The notes: generated by a model not told the origin, from the sequence alone. DNA of 64,000 nt from Gemmatimonadota bacterium (GCA_965116475.1 OZ220691.1:3296001-3360000); one strand, 5' to 3'; numbered from the stretch's first letter, positions 10,758-31,968 are shown. Translations and numbers: made by a program.

Positions 10758-12155
10758 TTACGGGTTTCCTTTCGGTTGCAGCACCTGGGCGATGAACTCG
10801 ACCGCGCGGGGGATGGCCCCGGGCAGGGAGAGGAAATCGTGCCCGCCTCCCTCGTAGATGAACGTCTCGAACTCGGGAGCGGCGCGGCCCAGCGCCGCCA
10901 TCGTTCGCATCAGCGACTCCGCCTGGCTCACGGGCACGACGAAATCGGCCGTGCCGTGGTGCACTTGGACCGCGGGGAGGTCGGCCGCGAAGAGGACGGA
11001 CGATCGGCGCACGAGTTCGAGGCGCGCCTCGGGGGTGGACAGCGTACCGCGGACCAGCGGCTGCACGACGGTGGAGTCGAGATGGATGAGACCGGGCAGG
11101 TCCCAGGGGCCATCGAGCGCGGTCTTCCAGGCGATCACCCTGATCCAGTCGTCGAAGAAGTCCGTCGGCCCGAAGAACGCCACGATGCGCTCCACGCGCT
11201 CGTCCCGCGCTCCCGCGAGCAGGGCGACGCCGGCCCCCCGGCTGCCGCCGACGATATGGATGGCGCCCGGCCGGGCCTCCGGCGTCGTCTCGAACGCGAC
11301 GTTCGCGAGCGCGAGCGCGTCGTCGACGTCGTAGTCCCAGTGGCCCGAGGGGCCTTCCGACACCCAGCTCCGGCCTCCGTAGCGGAGCGGCTCGCTGCGG
11401 AACGAGGGGATCGCGTAGACGAACCGGCGGCTCCGCTCTCCGAGGGCCGTCGTCACGATCTCGATGTCGTCGACCGATACTCCGCCGTCGCCCCCGTGCG
11501 TGTACATCAGCAGGGGCAGCGTTTCGGGGGCCGCGCCGTCGGGCACGATGATGGCGCCGAAGTGGCGGACGCCGGCCACGACGTGGGAGACGATCCGCAG
11601 CGTGGCCGTCGATTCGCCCAGCGCCAGCTCCTCGGTCAGTTCGACCGAGACCCCCGCCGCCGAAACGTCGCGCCGGGCCCAGTTGGCCCGCACCGCCTCC
11701 ACCTCCATCGCCGAGGCCGGAGCGAACAGCGCAGCGAGTTCGGCATCGAGATCGATGGCCTCGGCCCGAACCGTGGCGCCGGCCGGCCCGGCGGAGACCT
11801 CGAGGCGCTGCGGACCGGGGGTGGCGCCGAGCGTCCACGACGTCGCCGCCTCGCCGCCGGCGTCGGCCGTGGTTGACGTCGGATCCGTGCTGCCGTGGCC
11901 GGGATCGGGCTGAAACGTGACGGTGGCGCCGGAAACGGGGCGTCCGTCGCCGTCGAGGACGCGGACCGCAATCGCTTCAGCCGGCGGGCGCGCCGGGACG
12001 CCGCGCTGGTCCGCGCCCGCCAGAACGACGATGGAGGCCGGGCCGGTCTCGACGGGGGCGATCGTGTCGGCTTCTCCGCAGGCGGCGGCCAACGCCGGGA
12101 CGAGCAGGGCCGCCCAGCGCCGGCTTCGGGCCCGGGAGCGTCCGGCCCGCGTCAT
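10758..12155 (-). CDS. Lipoprotein with Ig-like domain and alpha/beta-hydrolase domain
   Basis: Lipobox LAAAC; Ig-like VRVLDGDGRPVSGATVTF...WTLG; HGG, nucleophile GGSRG, HGTAD, GGGH. Confidence 0.8.
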   Translation of the reverse strand: MTRAGRSRARSRRWAALLVPALAAACGEADTIAPVETGPASIVVLAGADQRGVPARPPAEAIAVRVLDGDGRPVSGATVTFQPDPGHGSTDPTSTTADAGGEAATSWTLGATPGPQRLEVSAGPAGATVRAEAIDLDAELAALFAPASAMEVEAVRANWARRDVSAAGVSVELTEELALGESTATLRIVSHVVAGVRHFGAIIVPDGAAPETLPLLMYTHGGDGGVSVDDIEIVTTALGERSRRFVYAIPSFRSEPLRYGGRSWVSEGPSGHWDYDVDDALALANVAFETTPEARPGAIHIVGGSRGAGVALLAGARDERVERIVAFFGPTDFFDDWIRVIAWKTALDGPWDLPGLIHLDSTVVQPLVRGTLSTPEARLELVRRSSVLFAADLPAVQVHHGTADFVVPVSQAESLMRTMAALGRAAPEFETFIYEGGGHDFLSLPGAIPRAVEFIAQVLQPKGNP

Positions 12156-14158
12156 TCGGCGCCTCCGGCGGCGCCGGGGTCGCCCGCGGGGGCCAGGCGG
12201 ACGCGGGCACGCCCGGCTGCGGCAGGCCACGCGAGTTCGACGAGTTCCCCCTGGTCGATTTCCTCGAAGCCGCGCTCCGACCGCGCCAGCGTGACGATCC
12301 GCGTGCGCGACTCCCGAGACTCGCCCCCGAACGCCTCGGCCTCGACCCTCATGGGGTGCGCGAGCGGCAGCCGGGTGACGACCACGCTGTCGGCGGGGAG
12401 GTCGGCCGCGTTCCAGTCGAGTGTCGCTTCAACCGTGCCGTCGCCGTGAATCTCGAGCGTCTTCTCGAGGCGGGGTAGGCCGGGTTCGGACGTAAGACGG
12501 AGGCGGATCCGGTCGGGCTCGGCGCCGGGCTCGAAATCCGGGACGCCGCGCAGCCGAAACGGGTGCGGCCGCCAATCCGCGACGGACGTTCGTTCCCGAG
12601 CGCCCGCGCCGTCGCCCGGTGCGAAGGCGATCTCCTGCAGCAGCGCCAGAGGGACGCTGTCGGGGGGCGGTGCGATGGGAGGCTCGGAGTCACGGTCGTG
12701 GACCGAGGCGACGCCGTCGCTCCGGCTCCGCGCCGCGTGGGTGACGCCGTCCGCTCCCCCGCGCGTCGCGCCGGATGCCGCCGGATCCCGGTGGTAGGCC
12801 TCGAGGCGGCGGGAGAGGACGTTGGCGTAGTTCACGCCGTCCCTAAAGACCGTGAGGATTTCGATCGCGCCGCCGCGCGCGGGGCTGACCACGATGGAAC
12901 TCCGGGCCGAGTGGATCCAGATCTCGTCATGGCCGTCCAGGTCGAAGTCGAGAGCCTCGAACGCGATGCCTTCTTCCTCGCGCAACCGCCGTTCGGCCGC
13001 GGCGAGTTCGCGCCAGATCGCCCGGCGCAGGTGTGGAAGGTAGACCCCGCCGAACACCCCGTGCCAATACGCATCGTTGCACTGCCCCCGCGCGATCGCG
13101 CGCCGCGCCCCCTGCGGGTCGCCGCGCTCCCGACACAGACGAGACAGCCTCAGCGCCGTCTTGTGCATGCGGTTCGACTCCGGGTAGCGGCGCAGGAAGC
13201 CCTTCCAGTGCCCGCCGCGGATCAGCGGGCCGGCGTCGGCGTCGGCCCGCTCCGCGTCCGCAGTCGTCGCGGTGAGCCGGGCGAGGCGTCGCGCGGCGGG
13301 GCGGGGGAGCGTCCACGCCTCCATCTCGCGGTACGCACCCGCCGCGGGGTAGGCGAGCCCGCGGCCCGGGCCGGAGGCCGCCTCGCGGGTCGTGACCAGC
13401 TCCAGTTCGCCCCGCCCGCGCGCCGTGTTCAGCGCCTCGAGGAACGCCTCCAGCCAGCCGCCGGCGTACACCCATTCGCGGGTGTCGGGCCAGCCTCCGA
13501 ACTTCTCGCCGTCGTCGCCGAGCACGATCTGGCGCTGCCCGGCCCGCCGCCGCGCGGCGAAGAAGTCGACGATCTCCTGCACGGGCCGGAACGGGACGAG
13601 ATACCGGAGCCGCTCGTCGATCGGAAGGAGGCGGATCCGCTCTCCGCCGCTCTCCGTCGTGAAGACGCCGTCCAGTTCATCGCGCTCGAGCCCGCTGGCG
13701 AGGAAGTGACGGTCGTCGAGGAGCGTGTATTCGATGCCGGCGCGCGCCAGGCCGGCGGAGAGATCGGGTTCCCATACGCGTTCCGTGAGCCAGAGACCGG
13801 TGGCCTCGACCCCGAACCGGCCGCGGAGATCCGCACGCATCCACTCGATCTGTTCCACCCGGTCCGCCGGGGAGAGCGCTGCGAGGATGGGTTCGTAGCG
13901 TCCGGAGGCGAGGAACTCGATGTGGCCTTCCGCGGCCCGCGACCCGATGTCGTCGAGGAAGTCCGGGGCGTGGTCCTCCAGCCAGTCGAGGAGCGGGCCC
14001 GAGAGGTGCAGAGAGATCGGGGTTGTGCCGCGGGCGTGGAGGGCATCGAGGAGGGGTCGGTACACGCCCGTCAGGTGGTCCTCGAACACGTGGTCGAAGT
14101 TCCCCACCGGCTGGTGGAGGTGGATCGCGAAGGCGAAGCGGAGCGGGCCCTGGCTCAC
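12152..14158 (-). CDS. GH57 alpha-amylase / 4-alpha-glucanotransferase
   Basis: HLHQPVGNF, GLWLTERVWEP, GDDGEKFGGWP, QCNDAYWHGVFGGVYLPHLR. Confidence 0.92.
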   Translation of the reverse strand: MSQGPLRFAFAIHLHQPVGNFDHVFEDHLTGVYRPLLDALHARGTTPISLHLSGPLLDWLEDHAPDFLDDIGSRAAEGHIEFLASGRYEPILAALSPADRVEQIEWMRADLRGRFGVEATGLWLTERVWEPDLSAGLARAGIEYTLLDDRHFLASGLERDELDGVFTTESGGERIRLLPIDERLRYLVPFRPVQEIVDFFAARRRAGQRQIVLGDDGEKFGGWPDTREWVYAGGWLEAFLEALNTARGRGELELVTTREAASGPGRGLAYPAAGAYREMEAWTLPRPAARRLARLTATTADAERADADAGPLIRGGHWKGFLRRYPESNRMHKTALRLSRLCRERGDPQGARRAIARGQCNDAYWHGVFGGVYLPHLRRAIWRELAAAERRLREEEGIAFEALDFDLDGHDEIWIHSARSSIVVSPARGGAIEILTVFRDGVNYANVLSRRLEAYHRDPAASGATRGGADGVTHAARSRSDGVASVHDRDSEPPIAPPPDSVPLALLQEIAFAPGDGAGARERTSVADWRPHPFRLRGVPDFEPGAEPDRIRLRLTSEPGLPRLEKTLEIHGDGTVEATLDWNAADLPADSVVVTRLPLAHPMRVEAEAFGGESRESRTRIVTLARSERGFEEIDQGELVELAWPAAAGRARVRLAPAGDPGAAGGAE

Positions 14159-15579
14159 GCGTCCGTCCGGACGGGGACGCGGACTCTCGGGTTGAACTCG
14201 CGCCGGTACACGGCCGCGGCGTTCCCGACATCGGCGTCGTTCGCCGGCGCCTTTGCGAGGTCCGCGACGAAGGCGGCCTCCAGCCCCTCTGCGCGCTCCG
14301 GGGCGAGCCGACGCAAGCGGTCGAGGGCGTGCGCGGCGTAGCCCAGCACCTGTCTCGCTTCGAGGCCCGCGACATCGTCGAAGAACCAGGCGCAGGAGGT
14401 GAACATCGCGGCCCGGTCGCGGGCCACCTCGAGCAGCGCCAGCGCTTCGTCCCGGCGTTCTCCGCTACCGATCCCTCGGGCGGCTAGCGCGGCCAAGTCC
14501 TCCAGCCCGGACGGCGCGCCCAGCGCCTCGCCAAGCGTCTCGATGGCCCGCTCGGGTTCCGGCAACCGGCCTGGCGCCAACTCCGCGCCGGCCTCATCGA
14601 GTCCGGCGGCGAGCGATTCGAGCGCCGCGCGGAGCGGCGCCCGCCAGCGCTGCTGCGAATCGAGGTGAGGCGCCATCCGGCACCCGCACTCCGAGCGCCA
14701 GCGCTCCACGCCGTGCGCGCAACTCCACGACGTAGGTTCCTCGAGGGTCACGAACGGCACGTCGCCAGCGGCGGCGAGCGCCGAGGCGAAGTTCCCGATC
14801 TCCATTCCCCCGCGCTCGCGGACGCGGGAGATCACCCGCATGAGCGTGCGGTCGGCGCCCTGGTGGTGGTGTCCGAACGTCTCGCCATCCGTGGCCAGCG
14901 CGACGGCGGACCCGCCCCGGCCCGCGACCGACTGCAGTGCCTCGAACCACGCGTCGCGGCCGTCGAGCAGCGCTCCGAACGCCACGCCGTGCGAGAGATC
15001 GCCGTCGTAGATGAAGACCGCGATCTCGCGCCCCCCGCCGAGGCGGACCCGCCCCGCGCCGCCGGCCGGCACCTCGGCGACCTGGTGCGGGGCCACGACC
15101 GTGAAGGCCACGCCCTCCGCCGCCAGCACCTCGAGGGTCTCCATGTCGACGGCCGTCTCGGGAAGCCACATGCCCTCGGCGCAGCGCCCGAAACGCCGCT
15201 CGAAGTCCCGCAGCCCCCAGCGCACCTCCGTCTCCTTCTCCCGGCGCGAGGCCAGCGGAAGGATGACGTGGTGGTAGGGTTGGGCCAGCGCGTTGCCGTG
15301 TCCCAGCCGCTCGCGGCTCGCCCGATCCCCGCGCACGAACCCCTCGTGGACCTCCGGGCGCTCCCCCTCGAGCCAGCGCGCGAGCGTCGGGCCCAGGTCG
15401 AAGCTCAGCCAGTCGAACGCCCCCGCTCGCGCCAGGGGTTCGTAACATTCCGCCGTGATCCGTTCGTTCCAGTTCTCGAACGGGGCCGCACTCGGCTCGG
15501 GGCGAACCCGGTCCGTCCACGGGTCCTCGCGCGGCGGCTGGTAGAAGTGGCCGTGAAGGACAACCGTGGCGCGATCCAC
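14155..15579 (-). CDS. GH57 family / DUF3536 glycoside hydrolase
   Basis: HGHFYQPPRE, WLPETAVD, ATDGETFGHH, SWSCAHGVERW, MFTSCAWFFDD; start approximate. Confidence 0.9.
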   Translation of the reverse strand: MDRATVVLHGHFYQPPREDPWTDRVRPEPSAAPFENWNERITAECYEPLARAGAFDWLSFDLGPTLARWLEGERPEVHEGFVRGDRASRERLGHGNALAQPYHHVILPLASRREKETEVRWGLRDFERRFGRCAEGMWLPETAVDMETLEVLAAEGVAFTVVAPHQVAEVPAGGAGRVRLGGGREIAVFIYDGDLSHGVAFGALLDGRDAWFEALQSVAGRGGSAVALATDGETFGHHHQGADRTLMRVISRVRERGGMEIGNFASALAAAGDVPFVTLEEPTSWSCAHGVERWRSECGCRMAPHLDSQQRWRAPLRAALESLAAGLDEAGAELAPGRLPEPERAIETLGEALGAPSGLEDLAALAARGIGSGERRDEALALLEVARDRAAMFTSCAWFFDDVAGLEARQVLGYAAHALDRLRRLAPERAEGLEAAFVADLAKAPANDADVGNAAAVYRREFNPRVRVPVRTDA

Positions 15580-15593
15580 GGCCGGAGGGGGGG

Positions 15594-17114
15594 TCAGTCG
15601 CCCGGAGCGTGCGCGGCGAGCGCCCGCCGGTACACGTCCAGGTAGCGCTCCGCGCTGCTCGCCCAGCCGAAATCGCGGGTCATCGCCTGCACGGCGTGCT
15701 CGTTCCACGCTTCCGGTCCCCTCGCATACAGCGCGGCGGCCCGCCCGAGCGCGATCTCCAGATCTTCCGACGTGTACCCATCGAACAGGAAGCCCGTGAC
15801 CTGGTCTTCGATCGTGTCGGCCAGCCCCCCGACGCGCCGGGCCACCGGGAGCACGCCGTACAGCTGCGCCCGCATCTGCGTCAGACCGCACGGTTCGTAG
15901 AGCGACGGCATGAGGAGGAGGTCGGCGCCCGCCAGGAGCCGGTGCTCCTTTGGTTCGGCGAACTCGGTGTCCACGGCGATCCGGCCGGGAAAACGCCCGG
16001 CCAACTCGCGCAACGCCGTTTCGTATCGCTCCTCGCCCTGGCCGAGAAAGATGAACTGCCCCTCGGCCCGCTCCAGCGGTCCGCCGTCGATGAGGAGGTC
16101 GAGCCCCTTCTGCGCGACGAGCCGCGCGGTCATCCCGTACAGCGGTTCGCGCGGCGCCGCGGTGAGCGAGTACTCCCGCTGCAGCGCCCGCTTGCACGCG
16201 GCCTTCCCGGCCAGGTCCGCGCTCGAGAACGTCGCGGCGATCTCCCGGTCCGTCTCGGGATTCCAGACTTCGAGGTCGACGCCGTTCAGGATGCCGAGGA
16301 AGCGGTCGCCCATCTCGATGAACGAGCCGTGGAGGCCGAACCCTCCGTCGGCCGTGCGAAGCTCGTGCGCGTGCGTCGGACTCACGGTCGTCGCGTAGTC
16401 CGCGAACACGAGGCCGCCCTTGAGCAGGTTCAGGTGGCCGTAGAACTCCATGAGCCGCCAGTGGAACAGTTCGCGGGGCAGCCCGATCTCCTCCAGCGCC
16501 CCGGGGCCCTGAAGTCCCTGGTAGCCGGCGTTGTGAATGGAGAGGACGGCCGCCATGCGGTCGTGCGCCTCGCGTCCCTTGAACCGCGTACGCAGGAAGA
16601 CGGGGGCGAGGGCCGCATGCCAGTCGTGCGCGTGCACGACGACGGGCACGTTGGCGAGTTCCGGCAGAATCCGGAGCGCCGCGAGGTTGTAGAGCGCGAA
16701 GCGCAGCGGGTTGTCCGCGTAGTCCGCCCCGCCTTCCCCGTAGATCCCGTCCCGGTCGAAATACCCGGGGTGGTCGACGAAGAGCACGCGCGGGTTCCGG
16801 CGCGGACCCGGGTGCTGGAGAATCCGGACTTCCTCCATCCGGCGCCCCACGCGCACGCGGAAGCTGTCCGCGATCGGCTCCAGGTCGGGGAAGGCCTCGC
16901 GCACCGACCGGTAGAGCGGCATGAAGACCGTGACCGGGGTCCCCTGGGCGGCCTGGAAGGTGGCGATGCCGCGCACCGCCTCCGCGAGGCCGCCGGTGCG
17001 GGCGTACGGCCAGTACTCGGCGACGAGATGCACGACAGCGAGCTCCTCCGGGGGCTTGACCCCCGCCCGCGGCCGTGTCGGCGCTGGCTTGGCGATTGCA
17101 GGCATGCGGCTCAT
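15594..17114 (-). CDS. glgA: Glycogen synthase (GT5)
   Basis: RTGGL, HAHDWH, IHNAGYQG, ILNGVD, PSLYEPCGLTQM. Confidence 0.93.
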   Translation of the reverse strand: MSRMPAIAKPAPTRPRAGVKPPEELAVVHLVAEYWPYARTGGLAEAVRGIATFQAAQGTPVTVFMPLYRSVREAFPDLEPIADSFRVRVGRRMEEVRILQHPGPRRNPRVLFVDHPGYFDRDGIYGEGGADYADNPLRFALYNLAALRILPELANVPVVVHAHDWHAALAPVFLRTRFKGREAHDRMAAVLSIHNAGYQGLQGPGALEEIGLPRELFHWRLMEFYGHLNLLKGGLVFADYATTVSPTHAHELRTADGGFGLHGSFIEMGDRFLGILNGVDLEVWNPETDREIAATFSSADLAGKAACKRALQREYSLTAAPREPLYGMTARLVAQKGLDLLIDGGPLERAEGQFIFLGQGEERYETALRELAGRFPGRIAVDTEFAEPKEHRLLAGADLLLMPSLYEPCGLTQMRAQLYGVLPVARRVGGLADTIEDQVTGFLFDGYTSEDLEIALGRAAALYARGPEAWNEHAVQAMTRDFGWASSAERYLDVYRRALAAHAPGD

Positions 17115-17137
17115 ACTTCGTCGCGAAGTGGCGTAAT

Positions 17138-19188
<2,051 letters not shown>

Positions 19189-19192
<4 letters not shown>

Positions 19193-19941: not shown

Positions 19942-21215
19942 GAGGCGAGCATCGGCACGGCGCCGGGGGGTTCCTCCCGGCGGGCCGCCTGTATGCGGTC
20001 GAAGAAGAGCGCGGTGAACTCCTCGATCTCGTGATCGGGATAGAGCGAGGCCACCTTCGCGTGCACCGCGTCGCGGGCCGCCTCGCTGCCGAAGAAGTCG
20101 TCGGCCACCGCGTCGAGTTCCGCGAGGTGCGCATCGCAGAACTCCACGAAGCGGTCGGTCTCGAACCGCGCCTCCGCGATCGCGGCGCAGGCCCGAACTC
20201 TCTCCCCGACCGACATCCCGGGGCGGCAGGCATCGAAGAACGGCTGCCAGTCGAGGTTGACGCGCATCCGGCGCCGGGTCGCCGCGCAGAACAGGGACCA
20301 GCGGAGGTTCGCCTTGATGAGCCACGGGAAGTGGTAGTGGAGCGACGTGACCTGCGAGTCCGGACAGGGGTTCGCGAAGTCGATCGGCATCCACCGGCGG
20401 CCGCTGCGAAGCACCTCGCACGAGTTGAAGTCCCACCCGAAGAACGCGTTGATCGTGAGCGTGGTGTCCCGGATCGCGGCGGCGTCGGCGGGCTCGAGGC
20501 GGTCCCGTTCGACCGTGTAGCGGTCGTGCGCGGGGGCGCCGGGGTCGTAGAGGACGGCGCGCGTTTGCGGGCCCAGCCCGATGCAGCGGACGAAGCGGTC
20601 GTGTTCCACCCCTTGCTGGAGGTGCATGACGAACTTGCCGCTCTCGTCGTAGGCGGCGCCGAGCGCCTCGTCATCCTCGATCCGCGACACGCCGCGCCAT
20701 CCGCCGCCGTCGTACGGCTTCATGAACACGGGATATCCCAGGTCGTGCGCCACGGCGGGGAGGTCGAACAGCCGCGCGTAGCGTTTCAGGGTGACCGCCA
20801 GATCGTCCTGCGGATCGTAGGACTTGGGCGGGACGAGCCATGTCCGCGGAACCGGGAGACCCAGCCTCATCATCGCGCAGTAGGTGGAGTGCTTCTCCAT
20901 CGACTGGACGCTCCACGGATTGTTGAACACGTAGAGCCCGTCCATGATCACGGCCTTCTTGATCCACTCCCGCGTCGGGTAGAACCAGTGCGTGAGACGG
21001 TCGATGACGACGTCGTACTTCCCCCTCTGCTGCAGGTCGAAGGGCTCGATCGTGACGTCCTCGAGATGAAACCGGATCGGGCCGTCGGGCGAGGGGATCC
21101 GCGGGTTCAGGCGCTCAAGGATGGCGCGGTAGGCGATGGGCCAGCACAGGTCCGCCCCGAGCGAGAGGCCGATGCGGCGCGTGACCCCGCCCGCGGGGAC
21201 TGCCACGGCCGTCAT
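19938..21215 (-). CDS. ATP-grasp ligase (RimK/glutathione-synthetase-like)
   Basis: VIDRLTH, NNP..MEK, LGYPVFMKPYDGGGWRGV, LQQGV, FNSCE, IDFANP. Confidence 0.88.
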   Translation of the reverse strand: MTAVAVPAGGVTRRIGLSLGADLCWPIAYRAILERLNPRIPSPDGPIRFHLEDVTIEPFDLQQRGKYDVVIDRLTHWFYPTREWIKKAVIMDGLYVFNNPWSVQSMEKHSTYCAMMRLGLPVPRTWLVPPKSYDPQDDLAVTLKRYARLFDLPAVAHDLGYPVFMKPYDGGGWRGVSRIEDDEALGAAYDESGKFVMHLQQGVEHDRFVRCIGLGPQTRAVLYDPGAPAHDRYTVERDRLEPADAAAIRDTTLTINAFFGWDFNSCEVLRSGRRWMPIDFANPCPDSQVTSLHYHFPWLIKANLRWSLFCAATRRRMRVNLDWQPFFDACRPGMSVGERVRACAAIAEARFETDRFVEFCDAHLAELDAVADDFFGSEAARDAVHAKVASLYPDHEIEEFTALFFDRIQAARREEPPGAVPMLAS

Positions 21216-22417
21216 TCGTAGACCATCCACAGCGGGCCCGGGAAGAGCCACGACAGGCCCTCGCGCAGGCGGTCGCGCCAGTTCTCCCAGTTGTGGCCGT
21301 CGCGCGACTCGACGAAGCGCACCTCCGCGCCGCCGCGACGGAGGGCCGGGATCAGGGCCCGGTTCTCCGAGACCAGCGGTTCGTACACGCCCACGGAGAC
21401 GAACGCCTTCTCGGCGATGGCGGTCGGCGCGGCCCGGTAGGCGTTCATCATGTCGACGACGCGGTCGAAGACGGGGCCGCTCTCGTTGGCGCCGATATCC
21501 GTGAAGAGGAAGGAGCCCGACTGGAGGAGCAGGCGGCCGAACAGGCCGGGGTGTTCGAGCGCGGCGTGGAAGGAGGCGACGGCGCCCAGACTCGCGCCCA
21601 TCAAGCCGCGGGATGCGGGGTCGGGAAGGAGCGGATAGTCGCGCTCGAGGCGCGGGAGCAACTCCTCGGCGACGAACCGCGCGTGCGCCGGGTCCGCCGA
21701 GTATTCCGACATCCGGTCGGCCGGGTGCAGGAGGGCGACGATCATCCGGGGGATCTCGAAGCGATCGATCAGCCGGTCGAGCACGTGTCGCAGGCCGGCG
21801 TACTCGACGTAGTCTCCGCCGTCATGCACGACGAGCAGCGGGTAGCGCCGGTTGGCGCGGAACTCCGCCGGACGGTACACGGTCACGTGCCGCGCGGACT
21901 CGAGTGCCTCGCTCTCGACGGCGAGTTCGTCCACCTCCCCGCGCCGGACCTCCTCGTTCTCGCGGGCCCAGTCGGGGATCTCGTAGCCCCGCGCCTGCAC
22001 GACGGAGTTCGCGCCGAATGGATCCCGGGCGCGCTGGGGGTTCAGCGGGTCCTCGATCCACTCCGCGCGCCCGCCGCCGAGGACCTCGATCTTGTACTCC
22101 ACCCGCGATTCGTCGGGGAGTTCGAGCGTGTAGCACCACAGATCCGTGCCGTCGAGGCGGCGGAAGGGCGCCGAGGTCTGGAGGCCGTGCACCCAGTTCC
22201 GGAGCCGGACGGCGTCGGCATGGCCCCGGTACACGAAGGTGTAGAGGGGAGGCTCGGCCAGCGGGAACTCGTTCGCGTCCAGGAACGCGGCCACCGGGTC
22301 CACCGGATCCGCCCCGCCGGCGTGGGAGGCGAGCCGCTCCTCGAGCGCCGCGATCGCGCACGAACGCGGCATCGACGGCTCCTGCCGGTGGGCCCGGGCG
22401 TGGGGGTCGTATCGCAT
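21212..22417 (-). CDS. Enterochelin-esterase-like hydrolase with N-terminal CBM48/E-set-like domain
   Basis: TFVYRG...LW.YTLELP..SRVEYK...DPLNP...NSVV; HDGGDY, GASLG, GHNWENWRD. Confidence 0.85.
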   Translation of the reverse strand: MRYDPHARAHRQEPSMPRSCAIAALEERLASHAGGADPVDPVAAFLDANEFPLAEPPLYTFVYRGHADAVRLRNWVHGLQTSAPFRRLDGTDLWCYTLELPDESRVEYKIEVLGGGRAEWIEDPLNPQRARDPFGANSVVQARGYEIPDWARENEEVRRGEVDELAVESEALESARHVTVYRPAEFRANRRYPLLVVHDGGDYVEYAGLRHVLDRLIDRFEIPRMIVALLHPADRMSEYSADPAHARFVAEELLPRLERDYPLLPDPASRGLMGASLGAVASFHAALEHPGLFGRLLLQSGSFLFTDIGANESGPVFDRVVDMMNAYRAAPTAIAEKAFVSVGVYEPLVSENRALIPALRRGGAEVRFVESRDGHNWENWRDRLREGLSWLFPGPLWMVYE

Positions 22418-22425
22418 GGGCCGGA

Positions 22426-23430
22426 CTACGCGGCCGTACGGAAGGGGACGCGGCGGCCCGCCGCATCGAGGCGGTCGACGCCGTTCCCGCCGCTCCAGCC
22501 GCTCCGGCCATCCGCGGCCCGGTCGATGCGGTGGCCGGCGTCGAGGAGGACGCAGGGGTCGGGAGCGAAGCGGGCCGTGAGTCGCGCGCCGCGCGTCCGA
22601 TCGTCCAGCGCGAGCCGGGCGGAGGCGTGCGGCAGCGCGACGAGCCCCTCGGCAATCCCGAGCCCCGCGTCGAACACCTCGGGATGGCCCTCGCCCCACG
22701 GCGGCCGGTCGTGAAAGAGCACGACGCGCTCCGTCAGCACCATGGCGCCGGCCGACCGGCCGATCAGCGGGCGGCCGTCCAGGAGCTGCCGTCCGCCGAA
22801 CAGGCGCAGGCGGCTGAGCAGGTTCCCGACATGCCCGCCCTCGAGCACGATCGCCTCCGCGTCCTCGAGGCGCGCGTCCACCTCGCGTCGCTGCCATCGC
22901 ACGGCATCGCGCTCGGGGGGCGTCATGCGGCGCTCGAACTCCGACCGGATCTCGGTCACGCGGTCCAGGTGCCGCGCATCGAGGCGCCGAATGGCCTCGA
23001 GGGCTTCGCCGCGCTCGGCTCGAAGCACCGACTCGTCGCCCCGCAGTTCGGCCAGCCGCCGGTGCGTCTCGATGAGACCGTGGAGGCGCAGATTGTAGGC
23101 GCGTCGGAGCGTCCCGAGCCGGTCCCGCACCTCCCGGTGCGCACGCGCAAGTTCCGCGTCCGCTTCGGCGACCCTGTCCGAGCGCCGATAGAGTTCAAGA
23201 TCCACGACGCGGTCCGCGAGGCGGGGATCGATGAGCCCCTCGTTCGCTTCCCGGTCGCGCCACCCGGCGGTGATGGCCGCGATCCGCGCGCCGGGCGACA
23301 GCGCGCCCGAGGCCTCCAGTTCCCGCACCACGTCCGGGAGCGCAAGGCCGCCCCCTCGCGGACCGAGGAGGACGAGCGGCGGCCGGGACTCGGCGTCGGC
23401 AGTGGCCCGGCGCCTTCTCGCCACCCTCAT
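22426..23430 (-). CDS. Peptidase S51 (cyanophycinase / dipeptidase E-like) protein
   Basis: ITAGW, IVLEGGHV, nucleophile GRSAGAM, LPHA. Confidence 0.8.
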   Translation of the reverse strand: MRVARRRRATADAESRPPLVLLGPRGGGLALPDVVRELEASGALSPGARIAAITAGWRDREANEGLIDPRLADRVVDLELYRRSDRVAEADAELARAHREVRDRLGTLRRAYNLRLHGLIETHRRLAELRGDESVLRAERGEALEAIRRLDARHLDRVTEIRSEFERRMTPPERDAVRWQRREVDARLEDAEAIVLEGGHVGNLLSRLRLFGGRQLLDGRPLIGRSAGAMVLTERVVLFHDRPPWGEGHPEVFDAGLGIAEGLVALPHASARLALDDRTRGARLTARFAPDPCVLLDAGHRIDRAADGRSGWSGGNGVDRLDAAGRRVPFRTAA

Positions 23431-24650
23431 GCGGCGCGCACTCGCACCCAGCGCCCGACCGCGTCGAGCATGCGGCGCAGTTCGTCGTAGTCCGGGTGCC
23501 GCAGCCGGAGCCAGGCGTTCGCCATGTACCCGGCCTCCACCGGCTGGGTCGGCGTGCCGAGCGGCGGCAGATGCGTGTCGATGATCCACTCCCCGAAACG
23601 GGCTTCCACCTTTTCCAGGCCCTCATACCCCGCGATCCGCCCGTTGTTGTCGGGCCGCAGCGTCACGATCCCCGCGGAGTAGCGGCGCGACGCGTCCCGC
23701 AGCTTCCGGCCATGCACGATGCAGGCCGCCCATTCGCGGTACACATCGATCTCGTTCGCCGCGCCGTACAGATCCCAGGCCCGCACGCCGGGCGGGCGGC
23801 AACCGATCTCGGAGAACTTGAGTCCCTTCTCTCCGAAGAACCATTCCATGTGGGTGGCGGAGGTCCCGATGTCGAGCGCGTCGATGACCCGCTTGCCGAG
23901 TTCCCGAACCTCCGCGTAGGCGTCGGCGGTGTCGATCCGGTTCGTGGCGATGAACTGGGGCGACACCTCCCGCGTCCGCATCGCCTCGAGCACGTTCGGG
24001 TAGTAGTGGGTCATGAAATCGTGCACCACCGTGCCGGCCACCGTGAGCGTGTCGTAGAAGGCCTCGTGCCCGTCCACGAACTCCTCGACGGCGACTTCGG
24101 CGCCATGCCCCACGCCGAGGCGCGGGAGCAGCGCCGCGAGTTGCGCCTCATCTTCGACCCGATACGTGCCCGAGGCGCCGGCCCCGGCGCGAGGCTTGAC
24201 GATGAGCGGATAACCCACCTTCCGGCCGAACCCCGCGATCTCCTCCGCGTCGCCTCCACCCATGGACTGGGCGGTCGCGATTCCCGCCGCGCGAAGGGCG
24301 TCCTTCATCGCCGGCTTGTCCCGGCACAGGTGCGCGGTCCGCACCGAAGTCCCGGCCAGCCCCGCGCCCTCCCGGACGCGGGCGACCGGGAGGATGTGGG
24401 CTTCGACCGTGGCCTCGAGGCGATCCACGGGCCGCCGGCGGTGGATTTCGTGAACGGCGTGGGCGAGCGCGCCCTCGTCGCACACGGAGCCGACCTGCTC
24501 GTAGCAGGCGAGCCACCCGTGCAGGTCGGAGCCCAGCGCCTCCGGCGGCGCTTCGCCCACCGCAGACACTTCGGCGCCGACTTCGCGCAGGCCGCGCACG
24601 AAGTCCTTCTGGTTTCCGGGAAACAGGGGTTCGACGAATACGACGTGCAT
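23427..24650 (-). CDS. ATP-grasp ligase (L-amino-acid-ligase-like), paralog 1
   Basis: CRDKPAMK, GYPLIVKPRAGAGA, VEEFVDG, HMEWF, SEIGCRPPG. Confidence 0.9.
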   Translation of the reverse strand: MHVVFVEPLFPGNQKDFVRGLREVGAEVSAVGEAPPEALGSDLHGWLACYEQVGSVCDEGALAHAVHEIHRRRPVDRLEATVEAHILPVARVREGAGLAGTSVRTAHLCRDKPAMKDALRAAGIATAQSMGGGDAEEIAGFGRKVGYPLIVKPRAGAGASGTYRVEDEAQLAALLPRLGVGHGAEVAVEEFVDGHEAFYDTLTVAGTVVHDFMTHYYPNVLEAMRTREVSPQFIATNRIDTADAYAEVRELGKRVIDALDIGTSATHMEWFFGEKGLKFSEIGCRPPGVRAWDLYGAANEIDVYREWAACIVHGRKLRDASRRYSAGIVTLRPDNNGRIAGYEGLEKVEARFGEWIIDTHLPPLGTPTQPVEAGYMANAWLRLRHPDYDELRRMLDAVGRWVRVRAA

Positions 24651-24774
24651 TACTTCGCCAGCGACTCGGGGGAAAAACTTCACTTTGGGGGCCCGACATA
24701 GTACAGTCCCTGCTCTCGAACGCCAGCCCGTCCGGCGGCGGCCGTCCGGCCCGTCGCGGCAACCCGGAAGGTCC

Positions 24775-25998
24775 ATGCCCAACGTCGCATTCGTCGCCCC
24801 GTTCTATCTCCCTGCCACGCTGCGTTTTCTGGAAGCCGCCGCGGGGCTGGACGGGGTGCGCCTCGGGGTCGTGACGCAGGAACCGCTCGAACGCACGCCC
24901 CCCTCGCTGCGGCGGCGCATCGCCGCGCACGTCCGCGTCGACGATGCGCTGTCGCCGGAGGGCATCCACACGGGGCTCCGCCGGCTCTCCTCCGAACTCG
25001 GCGGGGTCGACCGCCTCCTGGGCGCGCTCGAGGAGCTTCAGGTGCCGCTCGGAGAACTGCGCGACGCCCTCGGCATCGAGGGAATGGGCGCGGAGGCCGC
25101 GCGCAACTTCCGCGACAAGTCCCGCATGAAGGACGTTCTCCGGGCGCACGGCCTGCCCTGTGCCCGGCACGCGCTGGTCCGGGACGGGGACGAGGCGGCG
25201 GCTTTCTCGGACGCGACGGGCTTTCCGCTCATCGTGAAGCCGCCGGCCGGCTCCGGCGCCCGCGGCACGTTCCGCGTCGAAACGCCGGAGCAGTTGCGCA
25301 CGGCGATCGCGATGTCGCGGCCGAGCGCCGAGCGGCCGACGCTCATCGAGGAGTTCGTCGTCGGCGAAGAACACTCCTTCGATGCGGTCTCGATCGGCGG
25401 ACGCCTCATCTGGCATTCGATCAACCACTACCTGCCGTCACCGCTCGAGGTGCTGCGCGAGCCGTGGATCCAGTGGTGCGTCCTCCTCCCGCGGGAGGTC
25501 GATTCGCCCCGGTACGAGGAGATCCGGCGCGTCGCCGGCCCCGCGCTCGATGCGCTCGGGATGGAGACGGGGCTGAGCCACATGGAGTGGTTCCGGCGGC
25601 CCGACGGCTCGGTCGCGATCTCCGAAGTCGGGGCGCGGCCGCCCGGCGCCCAGTTCGTCACGCTGATCTCGCAGGCGCACGATTTCGACCTCTACCGCGC
25701 CTGGGCCCGCCTCCTCGTCTTCGGCGAGTTCGACCCGCCGCCCCGCCCCTACGCGGCCGGCGCGGCCTATCTCCGGGGACAGGGCCGGGGCGCCGTGCGG
25801 CGGGTCGCCGGCATCGAGGAGATCGCAAACGAACTCGGGCCGCTCTGCGTCGAATGGCGCCTCCCCCGCGCGGGACAGGCACAGAGCGCGTCCTACGAGG
25901 GAGAGGGCTACATCATCGTCCGCCACCCGCGCTCGGAGGTCGTCGAGGAGGCGCTGGGGCGGATCATCACCCGCGTCCAGGTGGAACTCGCCACGTAA
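24775..25998 (+). CDS. ATP-grasp ligase, paralog 2
   Basis: FRDKSRMK, GFPLIVKPPAGSGA, IEEFVVG, HMEWF, SEVGARPPG. Confidence 0.9.
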   Translation: MPNVAFVAPFYLPATLRFLEAAAGLDGVRLGVVTQEPLERTPPSLRRRIAAHVRVDDALSPEGIHTGLRRLSSELGGVDRLLGALEELQVPLGELRDALGIEGMGAEAARNFRDKSRMKDVLRAHGLPCARHALVRDGDEAAAFSDATGFPLIVKPPAGSGARGTFRVETPEQLRTAIAMSRPSAERPTLIEEFVVGEEHSFDAVSIGGRLIWHSINHYLPSPLEVLREPWIQWCVLLPREVDSPRYEEIRRVAGPALDALGMETGLSHMEWFRRPDGSVAISEVGARPPGAQFVTLISQAHDFDLYRAWARLLVFGEFDPPPRPYAAGAAYLRGQGRGAVRRVAGIEEIANELGPLCVEWRLPRAGQAQSASYEGEGYIIVRHPRSEVVEEALGRIITRVQVELAT

Positions 25999-26029
25999 CG
26001 GCATAACCCAACGGCACCATGACGGAACC

Positions 26030-27247
26030 ATGAACGTATTGATGATTTCGCCGGGCTACCCGGCCGAGATGACGTATTTCACGCGCGGGCTCGCGCAGGT
26101 GGGCGCCACCGTCATCGGCCTGGGGGACCAGCCCGTGTCGGCGCTGCCCGAGATCGCCCGGGCGAGCGTGTCCCACCACCTCCAGGTGAGGTCGCTGGCG
26201 GATGAGGCGGACGTGATGCGGCAGGTTGCCGCGCTCGCCGCGAGCACCCGGATCGACCGCGTGGAGTGCCTGTGGGAACCCTTCATGATCCTCGCCGCGC
26301 GGCTGCGGGAGATGCTGGAGCTGCCGGGGCCGACCGTCGAGCAGACGCTCCCCTTCCGCGACAAGGAAGTGATGAAGGACGTGCTCGACGGCGCCGGTAT
26401 CCGGACGCCGCGTCACGGGAGGGCCACGAGCAGCGCCGAGTGCCGCGAGGTCGCCGAGCGCGTCGGCTTCCCGCTCATCGTGAAGCCGGTCGACGGCGCC
26501 GGCTCGGCAGACACGCACCGGGCCGATTCGGCGCGCGACCTCGAGCGGATCCTTCCCGCCCTCCGGCACGTCCCGCAGGTCACGGTCGAGGAGTTCATCG
26601 AGGGCGAGGACATGACCTTCGACACGGTCACGGTCGGAGGCGCCGTCGCGCACTACAACATCTGCCGCTACTGGCCCCGAGCGCTCGAGTCGAAGACGCA
26701 CGAGTGGCTCAGCCCCATCACGTACGCGCTGCGCGACGTGGAGGCGGATGATGTCGCCGCCGGTCGCGAGATGGGGTTCGCCGTGCTCGCCGCGCTCGGG
26801 TTCGAGACTGGCTACACGCACATGGAGTGGTACCGGACGGCGGACGGGGAGGCCGTGTTCGGCGAAATCGCCGCGCGGCCGCCCGGCGTGCGGACAGTCG
26901 ACCTCATCAACTTCGCGAGCGACATCGACACCTATCGCGGGTGGGCCGAAGGCGTGGTACACGCGACGTGGTCGCAGCCGGTGGAACGGAAATACAACGC
27001 CTGTTGGATCGTCAAGCGGGCGCGCGGGCATGGCCGGATCCAGCGCATCGAAGGACTCGCCCCCCTGCTCCAGGAGTACGGCGAGCGCGTGTGCAGCCTG
27101 GATCTGCTTCCGGTCGGGTCGCCCCGGCGGAACTGGCAGGCCACGCTCGTCTCCGACGGGATGATCTTCCTCCGCCACCCGGACCTCGACGCGCTGGAGA
27201 TGATCGCCGGCGAATTCGCGACCCGCCTGCAACTCTACGCCGCCTAG
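26030..27247 (+). CDS. ATP-grasp ligase, paralog 3
   Basis: FRDKEVMK, GFPLIVKPVDGAGS, VEEFIEG, HMEWY, GEIAARPPG. Confidence 0.9.
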   Translation: MNVLMISPGYPAEMTYFTRGLAQVGATVIGLGDQPVSALPEIARASVSHHLQVRSLADEADVMRQVAALAASTRIDRVECLWEPFMILAARLREMLELPGPTVEQTLPFRDKEVMKDVLDGAGIRTPRHGRATSSAECREVAERVGFPLIVKPVDGAGSADTHRADSARDLERILPALRHVPQVTVEEFIEGEDMTFDTVTVGGAVAHYNICRYWPRALESKTHEWLSPITYALRDVEADDVAAGREMGFAVLAALGFETGYTHMEWYRTADGEAVFGEIAARPPGVRTVDLINFASDIDTYRGWAEGVVHATWSQPVERKYNACWIVKRARGHGRIQRIEGLAPLLQEYGERVCSLDLLPVGSPRRNWQATLVSDGMIFLRHPDLDALEMIAGEFATRLQLYAA

Positions 27248-27306
27248 CGGTCCGCGCTCGGGGGCAGGCGCTCAACCGGCGGCGGCGTTCCGGGCGCCCG
27301 GGGGCG

Positions 27307-29463
27307 TCAGTCGTTGCCGCGCAGTGACGGGACGTAGTAGTCGCGCGCGTAGTCCCGCACCATGCGGGCCGCGGTGAATCGGGCGCCGGCGACCTCGATC
27401 GCCCGCCGCGCATGTGCGAGCCAGCCCGCCGGGACGTCATCCCCGGAACCCGCGCCGGAGCGGTCGTAGTAGCGGGGGACGACCTCCTCCTCCAGGAGCC
27501 GGAAGAGGTGCCCGGCGTCGTGTTCGTCCACCTCCTCCTCGCTCGCCGTGGCGGGGGCGGGCGGGATGATCCAGCCGTTGTCGCCCTCGAACCCCTCCTC
27601 CCACCAGCCGTCCGCGGTCGCGAGTTGGGGGACGCCGTTGAGGGCCGCCTTCATCCCGCTCGTCCCGCTCGCTTCCAGCGGGATCCGCGGGAGGTTGAGC
27701 CACAGGTCGACGCCCTCGACGAGGCCGTGCGCCGCATGGAGTCCGTAGTTCTCGACGAAGGCGACCCTGCCCTCGAACTCCGGATCGCGCGTATGCTCGT
27801 ACACGCGCTGGAGGACGCGCTTGCCGTCGTCGTCCCGCGGGTGCGCCTTCCCGGCGAAGATCAGCTGCACGGGGCGGGCGGGGTCGGAGAGAAGCGCGTG
27901 GAGGCGGTCGCGGTCGCGGAAGATGAGGTCCGCGCGCTTGTAGGTCGCGAAGCGCCGCGCGAACCCGATCGTGAGCGGCTCGGGGCTCATGAGCGTGCCG
28001 GCTCCGGCGAGGTGCGCCGATTCCGGCCAGTGGTCCGGCCACCGGCGGCGAGCCTCGTCCCGCATGAGATCGAGGAGCCGGAGTTTCAGCCGGCGCCGCA
28101 CGCGCCACAGCGCCTCGACAGGCACATCGCGCACCGCGCGCCACATGGCTTCATCGCCCGGACAGTGCCGCCACCCGGCGGGGAGCCATTCGTCCAGGAG
28201 ATCCGCGATGTCGTCGCTCATCCACGTGGCGAGGTGGACCCCGTTCGTCACGTGCCCGATCGGCACCTCCGCGGCCGCCCGGCCCTCCCACAGGCCGCGC
28301 CAGATTTCCCGGCTCACGCGCCCGTGCCGCGCGGAAACGCCGTTGACTCGCCGCGACAACCGGATCGCCGCCGCCGTCATGTGAAACCGGTCCTGCGCCT
28401 CGTCGTCCGGGTGGAGACCGAGTCCGAGCAACTCCTCGCGGTGCGCGATCTCCTCCCAGAACGTCTCGCCGATCCATTCCCGCATCTGCGCGTGGGAGAA
28501 CACGTCGTGGCCCGCGGAGACGGGCGTGTGCGTCGTGAAGACCGTCGACGCGCGGACCCGGGACACCGCGCCCGCGAAGGACAGGCCGTCGCGCATCAGC
28601 CGGCGCACGCGCTCCACCATCATGAACGCCGCGTGTCCCTCGTTCGCGTGCCACGCCCCGGGCTCGACCCCGAGCGCGGCGAGCACGCGCACGCCGCCGA
28701 CGCCGAGGATCGCCTCCTGCCGCAGCCGGTGATCCGCGCCGCCGGCGTAGAGCTGGTGGGAGAGGCCCCGGTCGGCGGGATCGTTCTCCTCGAGGTCCGT
28801 GTCGAGGAGGTACAGCGAGACGCTCCCGACCCGCAGTCTCCAGCCCCCGATATGGATGCGGCGCCCGCCGCCCTGGATCGAGGCGAGCCAGGGGACGCCG
28901 TCCGCGCCGCGCAGCCGCTCCAGCGGCGTCAGGTCGGGGTCGAGCGGGTCGTCCGCGTCTTCCTGCCAGCCGTCCGGCCCCAGCGTCTGGTCGAAGTAGC
29001 CGTGCGCGTACATCAACCCGACGCCGACGAGGGGGACGCCCAGTTCGGACGCCGCCTTGAGATGGTCCCCGGCGAGCACGCCGAGCCCCCCGGAGTAGAT
29101 CGGGATGGACTCGTGCAACGCGAATTCCGCGCAGAAGTACGCCACGGGGCGGCCGCGGAGCGCGGGATGGCGCGCTTCGAACCAGGTCGGGGCGGCGTCC
29201 GCCGCATCACGCCAGGCGTCAAGCGCCGCGTCGTACCTCCGCAGGAAGACGGCATCTTCGGCCAGGCTGTGAAGGCGCCCGTCTCCGACGGTCCGCAGCA
29301 GCGCCACGGGGTTGTGGCGGGTACGGCGCCAGAGCGGCGGGTCGATGGCCCGGAAGAGGGCCGGGGCCGCCGGGTTCCACGTCCACGAGAGGTCGTTGGC
29401 GAGTTCCCACAGCCGTCCGATCCGGCCGGGGATCTTGTTGTCTGGACCCACGTGCCGCTTCAT
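27307..29463 (-). CDS. glgP: Alpha-glucan (glycogen) phosphorylase
   Basis: YSGGLGVLAGDHLK, NEGHAAF, ARRFATYKR, EASGTSGMKAA PLP site. Confidence 0.95.
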   Translation of the reverse strand: MKRHVGPDNKIPGRIGRLWELANDLSWTWNPAAPALFRAIDPPLWRRTRHNPVALLRTVGDGRLHSLAEDAVFLRRYDAALDAWRDAADAAPTWFEARHPALRGRPVAYFCAEFALHESIPIYSGGLGVLAGDHLKAASELGVPLVGVGLMYAHGYFDQTLGPDGWQEDADDPLDPDLTPLERLRGADGVPWLASIQGGGRRIHIGGWRLRVGSVSLYLLDTDLEENDPADRGLSHQLYAGGADHRLRQEAILGVGGVRVLAALGVEPGAWHANEGHAAFMMVERVRRLMRDGLSFAGAVSRVRASTVFTTHTPVSAGHDVFSHAQMREWIGETFWEEIAHREELLGLGLHPDDEAQDRFHMTAAAIRLSRRVNGVSARHGRVSREIWRGLWEGRAAAEVPIGHVTNGVHLATWMSDDIADLLDEWLPAGWRHCPGDEAMWRAVRDVPVEALWRVRRRLKLRLLDLMRDEARRRWPDHWPESAHLAGAGTLMSPEPLTIGFARRFATYKRADLIFRDRDRLHALLSDPARPVQLIFAGKAHPRDDDGKRVLQRVYEHTRDPEFEGRVAFVENYGLHAAHGLVEGVDLWLNLPRIPLEASGTSGMKAALNGVPQLATADGWWEEGFEGDNGWIIPPAPATASEEEVDEHDAGHLFRLLEEEVVPRYYDRSGAGSGDDVPAGWLAHARRAIEVAGARFTAARMVRDYARDYYVPSLRGND

Positions 29464-29718
29464 CTCCTTGCTTCCAAGGGGTGCTCGTCGCTGCCGAAGG
29501 TTGGGCCGCAGCGGGCCCCCGGTGTCGATACCAGGCGCCCGGAGCGCGAACGAAGTTACCGTACCGTGACCCGCGCCACACACCCCGGCGCCGCCGCCTT
29601 TTGCGACCCCGACCGGCCCCGCCGCGTCCGGCCAACCGTTGCAGCCTCAGCGGCACGGGGCCAAACTCAGCCACCTCTCCGGGACACGACACTCACCCGC
29701 CGCTAACGGGGACAACGC

Positions 29719-31416: not shown

Positions 31417-31418
31417 CC

Positions 31419-31445
31419 GCCAGCCGCGCCCGATCGGCGGCTGGC
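31419..31445. terminator. GC-rich hairpin between convergent genes
   Basis: GCCAGCCGC ... GCGGCTGGC 9-bp stem, no U-tract. Confidence 0.4.
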
Positions 31446-31473
31446 GCTTCGCCGGGCTGGCGGCGCCGGGCGG

Positions 31474-31965: not shown

Positions 31966-31968
31966 GGC

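Follow-up and report, generated by a model that had tools for sequence, protein, structure and literature searches.

Introduction

Bacterial glycogen is usually treated as a plain glucose polymer. Other polymers are decorated: starch is phosphorylated by glucan-water dikinase, which is paired with the SEX4 phosphatase, and teichoic acids carry D-alanyl esters. In both systems the logic is that ATP drives the attachment of a charged group, which hydrolases can take off the polymer again. A block of seven genes, here called A to G, that lies inside the glycogen locus of a Gemmatimonadota bacterium may follow the same logic, although its enzyme families and chemistry differ. The block was noticed in a stretch of 64,000 nt (GCA_965116475.1 OZ220691.1:3296001-3360000; 'the window' in what follows, meaning the whole of this stretch) by a model working from the sequence alone, which described a candidate alpha-glucan modification or peptide-storage system (the original prediction). 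In this study we show that the seven genes form a discrete, conserved unit, that this module is linked to glycogen genes beyond chance, and that it is coupled to the GT5 glycogen synthase and restricted to GT5-bearing genomes among those tested.

Several described systems resemble parts of the module. In cyanophycin metabolism (CphA and CphB, the latter an S51 enzyme), as in the module, an ATP-grasp ligase is combined with an S51-type hydrolase in the cytoplasm, following the logic of building and breaking down a reserve. However, the module has no multi-domain CphA: A, F and G score only 24-38 bits against the cyanophycin synthetase models TIGR02068 and NF010623, where the cut-offs are 850-877 and the weak matches fall in the ATP-grasp domain, and Pfam and NCBIfam found no Mur-ligase-like domain in any of the seven module proteins. 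Furthermore, B lacks the conserved S51 histidine, the two esterases and four separate ligases have no cyanophycin counterpart, and coupling to glycogen synthase is a feature of the module and not of cyanophycin. With no CphA present and the S51 triad not kept, we rejected the identification of the module as a cyanophycin system.

The individual enzymes also have characterized relatives. Among solved structures, A, F and G have their best relatives in the L-amino acid ligases (4wd3; BL00235, 3vot; BacD, 3vmm/3wnz). Known L-amino acid ligases occur in antibiotic pathways or stand alone, and not beside glgA, whereas here three paralogues share a block with hydrolases and with one more ATP-grasp enzyme that is unrelated to them. 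That fourth enzyme, D, shares its fold and some weak sequence matches with the branch that holds RimK, LysX, ArgX and D-Ala-D-Ala ligase (Ddl), but it belongs to no Pfam family, is only 10-18% identical to any known branch and is extended by an additional helical domain of ~120 residues. Similarly, esterase C has the same build as the CBM48-CE1 esterases and the enterobactin esterase Fes, an Ig-like N-domain followed by a PF00756 serine hydrolase. In contrast to these, with which its sequence identity is just 19-23%, C appears to be cytoplasmic, its gene lies among those for ligases and glycogen enzymes, and there are no xylan or siderophore genes near it.

The original prediction knew of no characterized pathway that matched, and none was found in the literature that we searched, subscription journals being outside the search. 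The same literature contained no paper on such a module and no description of a comparable covalent modification of bacterial glycogen. The sole conceptual parallel found is a fusion of an esterase with an ATP-grasp enzyme, predicted in metazoans, for which a role in adding amino acids or peptides to surface polymers has been proposed (PMC2824669). The fusion differs from the module in that its esterase is of the SGNH-like superfamily, and it is secreted, eukaryotic and a prediction only.

Results

Seven genes between glgB and glgP

The G+C content around the module is 70-73%, and lists of open reading frames (ORFs) are therefore full of false frames. Genes were called from a GC3 frame plot with start-codon mapping, and protein families were assigned with Pfam and NCBIfam. 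In the original prediction, a block of four ATP-grasp ligases, two serine hydrolases and an S51 peptidase occupied 19189-27247 between glgB and glgP, with 4-bp overlaps inside it, a stop codon overlapping that of glgB, glgA and two GH57 genes immediately to the left, and neither a precursor peptide nor an exporter. The gene map and the family matches bear out this layout. Five genes on the minus strand form a leftward operon with A first: A (23427-24683), an ATP-grasp protein of the L-amino-acid-ligase type by Pfam and by profile search of the PDB; B (22426-23430), an S51-like hydrolase; C (21212-22417), a two-domain esterase with an E-set/CBM48-like N-domain and a PF00756 domain; D (19938-21215), a divergent ATP-grasp ligase with a C-terminal helical domain; and E (19189-19941), a small PF00756 serine esterase of 250 aa. 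F (24775-25998) and G (26030-27247), both of the L-amino-acid-ligase type, form a divergent pair on the plus strand; F was assigned by its Pfam ATP-grasp match and PDB search, and G carries an ATPgrasp_N domain (PF18130, 32 bits).

The genes are tightly packed. Start and stop codons overlap by 4 bp at A/B, C/D and D/E, while B and C are 8 bp apart and F and G 31 bp apart. The largest gap inside the block is the 91-bp divergent region between A and F (24684-24774), which presumably holds the promoters. At the left end, a single CTAG at 19189-19192 is common to the stop codons of E and of glgB (17075-19192, plus strand), whose product scores 831 bits against the NCBIfam GlgB model (cut-off 741). 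With no gap above 91 bp there is no space for a precursor-peptide gene: none of the graspetide or other ribosomally synthesized peptide type fits into gaps of 8, 31 and 91 bp or into the overlaps, and a graspetide cluster was rejected on this ground. Pfam and NCBIfam found no transporter among the block proteins, and inspection by eye revealed no signal peptide in the seven. Rfam at the gathering threshold gave no match across 11000-33000, a promoter and terminator scan of 18900-27500 returned nothing above the shuffled expectation, and neither a sigma-70-like site nor an Rfam match was found in the A/F intergenic region.

Comparison within the genus shows that the block is gained and lost as a whole. 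In three relatives from the same genus (88-90% DNA identity) and one 70% relative (loci L001-L004), the segment 19188-27245 (8.06 kb) is inverted with respect to the window, exactly from the glgB/E stop to the stop of G, with breakpoints in two convergent stop regions. No terminal inverted repeats were found at the ends of the block; the long inverted repeats present reflect the paralogy of A, F and G. The other orientation was also seen in a contig of run X3, which joins 19202 to 27307 on opposite strands. Contigs from this run, whose library is recorded as metatranscriptomic and labelled 'sponge metagenome', span 30/30 bins of 12001-32000 at 95-99% likeness. We make no claim about expression or habitat from this coverage, since assembled contigs are no proof of transcription and may stem from carried-over DNA. 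Finally, a closed, single-contig genome of the same genus (G261) lacks the seven genes at the same glgB/glgP junction, and D was not found in it. There the order is Na:Ala symporter-glgP-glgB-glgA-GH57-GH57 (L084, G261:C1:1303000-1322999), with a gap of about 144 bp between glgP and glgB that contains short tandem repeats. Given the inversion and this absence, the seven genes have been gained, lost and flipped together at this junction.

Linkage to glycogen genes

A scan with a profile of D, using one genome per species, confirmed 554 places, and we analysed the best 80 loci by mapping the window proteins onto them with tblastn and clustering all called ORFs. Many of these loci are cut by contig ends, and lineage labels were taken from record titles. 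D was found in 78 of the 80, E in 72, C in 68, A in 55, B in 53, G in 37-39 and F in 22-23, while the GT5 glgA was found in 32-35; both esterases thus belong with D to the core of the module. A glg gene was detectable with the window proteins in 39/80 loci, where we would expect one in about 1% of random 21-kb stretches (our own estimate). Such a gene was present in 9/12 loci from Gemmatimonadota, 4/6 from Eisenbacteria, 9/15 from Gammaproteobacteria, 13/25 from Myxococcota, 2/7 from Planctomycetota, the only locus from Binatia (1/1) and the one unclassified locus (1/1), and in none from Actinomycetota (0/4), Alphaproteobacteria (0/8) or Acidobacteriota (0/1).

The gene immediately upstream of A, and co-directional with it, is glgA in 28 of the 55 loci that carry A. 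This adjacency was seen in Myxococcota, Gammaproteobacteria, Eisenbacteria, Binatia, Planctomycetota and Gemmatimonadota. The distance from the glgA stop to the A start is -4 to +30 bp in 13/23 co-directional pairs, and most of the other distances are artefacts of automatic start choice. Around this pair the gene order varies. Three loci (L036, L037 and L048) read glgB-G-F-glgA-A-B-C-D-E, while in Steroidobacteraceae the order is B-C-D-E...G-glgA-A-malQ-GH57, with glgC just beyond. Two genomes of the class Acidimicrobiia have C-D-E-glgA, or F-G-B-C / glgA-E-D, beside glgB-GH57-glgP, and the order D-E-glgA also occurs in this class. Linkage to glg genes recurs with differing gene orders in at least seven lineages. 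The original prediction held that its proposal would fail if homologues showed no enriched linkage to alpha-glucan genes; the linkage found is strong, extends over several phyla and takes different arrangements. The module is linked to glycogen genes beyond chance.

In a few database entries, module proteins are joined to one another or to glycogen synthase. These include a GlgA-A protein (P0124), two A-C proteins (P0125 and P0128) and a D-E protein of 723 aa (P0038), each a single sequence. The source of P0125 is named as Actinoplanes digitatis.

Dependence on GT5 glycogen synthase

If the module acts on or with glycogen, its carriers should hold a glycogen synthase. We examined this in two groups of genomes. 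Among 201 genomes of the class Acidimicrobiia (the class of G009), D was present in 15 (E <=1e-80) and GT5 in 54. GT5 occurred in 15/15 carriers of D and in 39/186 genomes without it (hypergeometric probability 5e-10, a value that overstates the case because these genomes are kin). Among 301 genomes of Gemmatimonadota, 69 match D, of which 14 have a true orthologue (E <=1e-117 and >=66% identity) and 55 only a distant paralogue. GT5 was present in 178/301 of these genomes overall, in 14/14 true carriers and in 164/287 of the others (chance probability 5e-4, relatedness uncorrected). Two of these tallies include one unpublished genome each, G163 among the 69 (with the paralogue only) and G063 among the 178. 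None is among the 14 or 15 carriers, so that the dependence does not rest on unpublished genomes.

GT5 was also found in all of the genomes G000-G010, including five (G006-G010) in which the module is unlinked to glg genes. In the bacterium of the window (G000) and in G001, G002 and G005, the linked GT5 is the sole PF08323 match in the genome, and is therefore the glycogen synthase of the cell and not a spare paralogue. The converse does not hold, since both G261 and G081 have GT5 and lack D. Thus, among the genomes tested, the module is coupled to GT5 and restricted to genomes that bear it.

The ADP-glucose pyrophosphorylase GlgC of the classical glgC-glgA pathway was not found in the window's own genome (one contig, 96% complete), where the best match to the GlgC model TIGR02091 was 35.6 bits (cut-off 424.9), and the best match to GalU was 47 bits (cut-off 326.8); only one generic nucleotidyltransferase was found, near 2.571 Mb. 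The outcome for glgC was the same in G005, while matches above the cut-off occur in G001 and G002 and near-threshold ones in G003 and G004. The absence of glgC was rejected as a correlate of the module, glgC being present or nearly so in G001-G004. As a separate observation, in the N-terminal K-T-G-G-L stretch the window's own GlgA has Arg at the position where the other linked GlgAs have a consensus Lys.

The ligases A, F, G and D

Of the four ATP-grasp ligases originally predicted, A, F and G are recognized by Pfam, while D is placed only by weak NCBIfam matches, a PDB profile search and its predicted fold. A, F and G are paralogues, as judged from ORF clustering and DNA similarity. In profile searches of the PDB, the best match of A was the L-amino acid ligase 4wd3 (E 6e-22), followed by BacD and BL00235. 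The best solved relative of F was again 4wd3 (E 1.4e-19), and those of G were 3vot and 4wd3 (E 1e-10). All three thus have ATP-grasp domains and L-amino acid ligases as their nearest characterized relatives, and by resemblance they would join free amino acids.

D, which serves as the signature gene of the module, is 60-65% identical across phyla, and D and A taken together 60-67%. D has no Pfam match; the NCBIfam models for RimK and LysX match it weakly (E 2e-5 to 2e-6; 24-27 bits against cut-offs of 143-276), and the PDB profile search returned Ddl (E 3e-4). A predicted model of D (pLDDT 73, pTM 0.78) gave ArgX, LysX and RimK, including their protein complexes, as top Foldseek matches, along with Ddl (E ~1e-7). 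In a second structural comparison synapsin, RimK, PurK, Ddl and LysX were tied at Z 12.5-14.4 (RimK 13.6). Both comparisons agree that the modelled D has an ATP-grasp fold, and on that alone; its structural sub-typing was dropped, since they converge on no branch. An alignment of 14 sequences shows no variation at K166, a Gly-rich loop, D279 and N282, and across 75 sequences conservation at these positions stays high. From the fold, we take these to be the ATP-binding Lys and loop and the Mg-binding Asp and Asn. The extra helical domain begins at about residue 296.

The hydrolases B, C and E

Both of the predicted serine hydrolases were recovered, C with 84 bits and E with 35.9 bits to Pfam Esterase (PF00756). 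The predicted model of C (pLDDT 90.7) has two domains. Ranked by E-value, its best Foldseek matches are the CBM48-CE1 feruloyl and acetyl-xylan esterases 8bf3, 6rzn, 7b6b and 6ne9 (~1e-23 to 1e-21; TM 0.53-0.64), and ranked by TM-score they are structures of Fes (2b20, 3c8h and 3mga; 0.65-0.70). Ser276 and His375 are invariant in 25 orthologues. The best NCBIfam match of C is enterochelin esterase (NF007758) with 116 bits; the equivalog cut-off is 222, and C was rejected as a Fes equivalog for this reason. In the N-domain, Enterochelin_N was matched in 24/25 orthologues at E up to 0.1 (25 bits in the window protein, against 27.1). All 73 aligned sequences of E have the Ser of the GxSxG motif and a C-terminal His.

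The prediction of an S51 peptidase stands in part. B scores 28.7 bits to Pfam Peptidase_S51 (PF03575; cut-off 23.9), and an orthologue in locus L023 scores 31.4 bits, but the match spans residues 180-270 only. At least 90% of 24 orthologues retain Ser226. The canonical S51 triad is Ser-His-Glu; however, the orthologues do not conserve the position that aligns with the His of this triad in Deinococcus peptidase E (6iru/6a4t). H200 and H240 are invariant in the same orthologues, and an Arg- and Glu-rich stretch of ~100 residues was read by eye as a helical insertion. With its marginal family match, B is S51-like only.

Accessory and neighbouring genes

Further genes accompany the module in other lineages. 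In 24/80 loci (for example L013, L020, L022, L050 and L061) the gene directly after E encodes a GCS2-CBS protein of ~650 residues, in which a partial GCS2 (carboxylate-amine ligase) domain is followed by a pair of CBS domains at the C-terminus; a plain GCS2 gene lies upstream of C in Alphaproteobacteria. GCS2 is absent from the block in the window, the single plain copy of that genome being at ~0.777 Mb (L083). Genes for an AstE/AspA-type deacylase and for an N-formylglutamate-amidohydrolase-type protein (FGase) each occur in 8/80 loci, and an RLAN-RimK ligase gene occurs in 3/80, in some Gammaproteobacteria. In the cultured Oceanibium sediminis (L076, region 3641-7087) the C-D-E core lies a few genes downstream of a set encoding a glycerol-3-phosphate dehydrogenase, an S6PP-type phosphatase and a GT20 glycosyltransferase, which looks like the synthesis of a compatible solute of the glucosylglycerol or trehalose type.

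Other Gemmatimonadota without D carry a shorter paralogue that is 33% identical to it (L081; L082, G222:C1:532500-549500). This paralogue belongs to a four-gene set of ATP-grasp, CP_ATPgrasp_2-like, GCS2 and Peptidase_C26 proteins. In L082 the set is inserted between GH57 genes, ~9 kb from glgA, with agmatine deiminase and N-carbamoylputrescine amidase genes upstream. GT5 lies within 7-14 kb of the D paralogue on the same contig in 14/55 genomes. We treat the set as a lead and not as independent support, because its linkage may stem from one ancestral arrangement.

In the window, the genes to the left of glgB all lie on the minus strand: glgA (15594-17114; Pfam Glyco_transf_5 211 bits); a GH57 gene with DUF3536 (14155-15579, its start taken from the frame plot; DUF3536 111 bits and Glyco_hydro_57 50 bits); and a second GH57 gene of the alpha-amylase/4-alpha-glucanotransferase type (12152-14158; Glyco_hydro_57 124 bits, with AmyA middle and C-terminal domains). 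Adjoining these, 10758-12230 (minus strand) encodes a protein of 444-490 aa with weak matches to Big_1 and CarboxypepD_reg, and to extracellular PHA-depolymerase-type and S9/DLH hydrolase domains; by these matches it could be another storage-polymer hydrolase. To the right of the block, a glgP-type alpha-glucan phosphorylase is encoded on the minus strand at 27307-29583 (to 29463 if an inner start is used; NCBIfam TIGR02094 747 bits). Beyond it, at 29719-31416 on the plus strand, is a Na:Ala symporter gene, which was rejected as a module member because it stays beside glgP in G261, where the module is missing.

Discussion

The seven genes are best explained as an accessory module of glycogen metabolism, cytoplasmic by appearance, in which four ligases that activate carboxylates are combined with two ester hydrolases and an amidase-like one. 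What the module makes is a more tentative matter, and we lean, at well below even confidence, towards a reversible, ester-linked aminoacyl or peptidyl decoration of alpha-glucan. According to this proposal, A, F, G and D would activate carboxylates as acyl-phosphates and build a short amino-acid unit, probably rich in Asp or Glu, which would be ester-linked to hydroxyls of a cytoplasmic alpha-glucan, whether glycogen or the malto-oligosaccharides that precede it. Removing or moving the unit would fall to esterase E and to esterase C, the latter guided by its N-domain of CBM48/E-set-like type, and the S51-like B would trim the peptide part of the unit. The net result would be a reversible glycogen decoration that carries charge or nitrogen. 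The acidic nature of the unit is a guess from the accessory families, which handle carboxylates and amides of Asp and Glu.

We favour decoration because it uses every part of the module: ester as well as amide bonds, an esterase with a CBM48/E-set-like domain, and the coupling to and dependence on GlgA. An ester substrate is favoured by the likeness of C to Fes and to the polysaccharide-deacylating CBM48-CE1 enzymes, and a peptide by the likeness of A, F and G to ligases of free amino acids. With no signal peptide seen in C, glycogen would be the cytoplasmic polysaccharide at hand. ATP-grasp enzymes can form esters, as do D-Ala-D-lactate ligase and the graspetide ligases. Classical glycogen preparation in hot alkali would destroy ester substituents, and an ester decoration would for that reason have been missed.

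Several points weigh against glycogen as the substrate. We know of no ATP-grasp enzyme that esterifies a sugar. By sequence, A, F and G are closest to free-amino-acid ligases, and by modelled fold D is closest to enzymes that extend the carboxylates of peptides or proteins. The overall fold of C is nearer to Fes, which cleaves a small-molecule seryl ester, and CBM_48 and CBM_20 were matched only weakly in its N-domain, in 4/25 orthologues each. The accessory genes, by their family names, point to the chemistry of free Asp and Glu amides. In the eight alphaproteobacterial and four actinobacterial loci the module lies away from glg genes. The phyletic tests are uncorrected for relatedness, and the fused proteins could be either natural or frameshift artefacts of overlapping genes.

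Some of these points suggest a different product, namely a free cytoplasmic oligopeptide, depsipeptide or poly-amino-acid that is made and recycled while glycogen stays unmodified. Such a compound, in which Asp or Glu would again probably be abundant, would serve as a nitrogen reserve or compatible solute, its genes co-expressed with the glycogen genes for carbon/nitrogen balance. We regard this main rival as only slightly less likely than decoration. It fits the resemblance of A, F and G to 4wd3, 3vot and BacD and of D to RimK, LysX and Ddl, and the S51-like character of B, whose nearest family includes cyanophycinase and Asp-dipeptidase. It also accommodates the accessory GCS2 or GCS2-CBS, AstE/AspA, FGase and RLAN-RimK genes, all of Asp/Glu amide families, the unlinked modules of Alphaproteobacteria and some Actinomycetota, and the compatible-solute-like neighbourhood in L076. 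However, the most conserved partners of D are two esterases, for which a pure peptide has no need unless it contains ester bonds. Nor does a free compound explain the translational coupling of glgA and A across phyla, or the presence of GT5 in every tested carrier of D, even in a class where only 54/201 genomes have GT5. A thiol peptide similar to glutathione, made by a GCS2-type ligase with D as a glutathione-synthetase-like enzyme and with C and E as thioesterases, gives no reason for coupling to glycogen synthase, and we find it decidedly improbable. GCS2 or GCS2-CBS does occur in 24/80 loci, including alphaproteobacterial ones, a protein atlas cluster is automatically named 'Glutathione synthase family protein' (score 0.97), and the D paralogue sits with CP_ATPgrasp_2-like, GCS2 and Peptidase_C26 genes; S-formylglutathione hydrolase (esterase D/FrmB) belongs to PF00756 as well. 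Yet the block in the window has no GCS2, the only copy in that genome being at the distant L083 locus, and C resembles Fes and CE1 rather than FrmB among the matches listed.

Two further explanations have been considered. RimK acts on ribosomal protein S6, and LysX and ArgX act on LysW; by analogy, D and perhaps the other ligases could act on a protein instead of a metabolite and add amino acids to a carboxylate of glycogen synthase or of another glycogen enzyme for regulation, with the hydrolases reversing the mark. The adjacency of glgA and A and the top Foldseek matches of D (ArgX, LysX and RimK, with their protein complexes) would suit this, but RimK, at Z 13.6, is tied with synapsin, PurK and Ddl in the second comparison, the likeness of A, F and G is to ligases of free amino acids, the gaps of the block are too short for a carrier-protein gene or small ORF, and esterases would have no role in removing an amide-linked tail. 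Regulation of this kind therefore appears improbable. The least probable explanation, to which we give very little credence, is that of a secondary-metabolite or siderophore-type cluster whose position in the glycogen locus is functionally meaningless. The enterochelin esterase match and Fes-like fold of C speak for it, as does the presence, inversion or absence of the block as a unit within a genus, which recalls accessory islands. On the other hand, the Fes match is far below its equivalog cut-off, the block contains no gene for a non-ribosomal peptide synthetase, exporter, receptor or precursor, and the conservation of D and A across phyla (60-67% identity) would be unusual for secondary metabolism. 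Such a cluster would also not be expected to recur beside glg genes in at least seven lineages in varied orders, or to be accompanied by GT5 in every tested carrier.

In summary, the module is found in Gemmatimonadota, Myxococcota, Gammaproteobacteria, Alphaproteobacteria, Actinomycetota, Planctomycetota, Eisenbacteria and others, and cultured carriers, by record title, include Oceanibium sediminis and, through the P0125 protein, Actinoplanes digitatis. The tie of the module to glycogen synthase, together with its restriction to genomes with such an enzyme, implies an unrecognized chemistry linked to carbon storage. It is possible, though less likely than not, that glycogen in many phyla carries reversible ester-linked amino acids or short acidic peptides that couple nitrogen or charge to the carbon store. 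A product on glycogen would represent a new class of polysaccharide modification, with ATP-grasp enzymes in a role new to them. A free product would instead be a widespread reserve or protective metabolite of a new kind.

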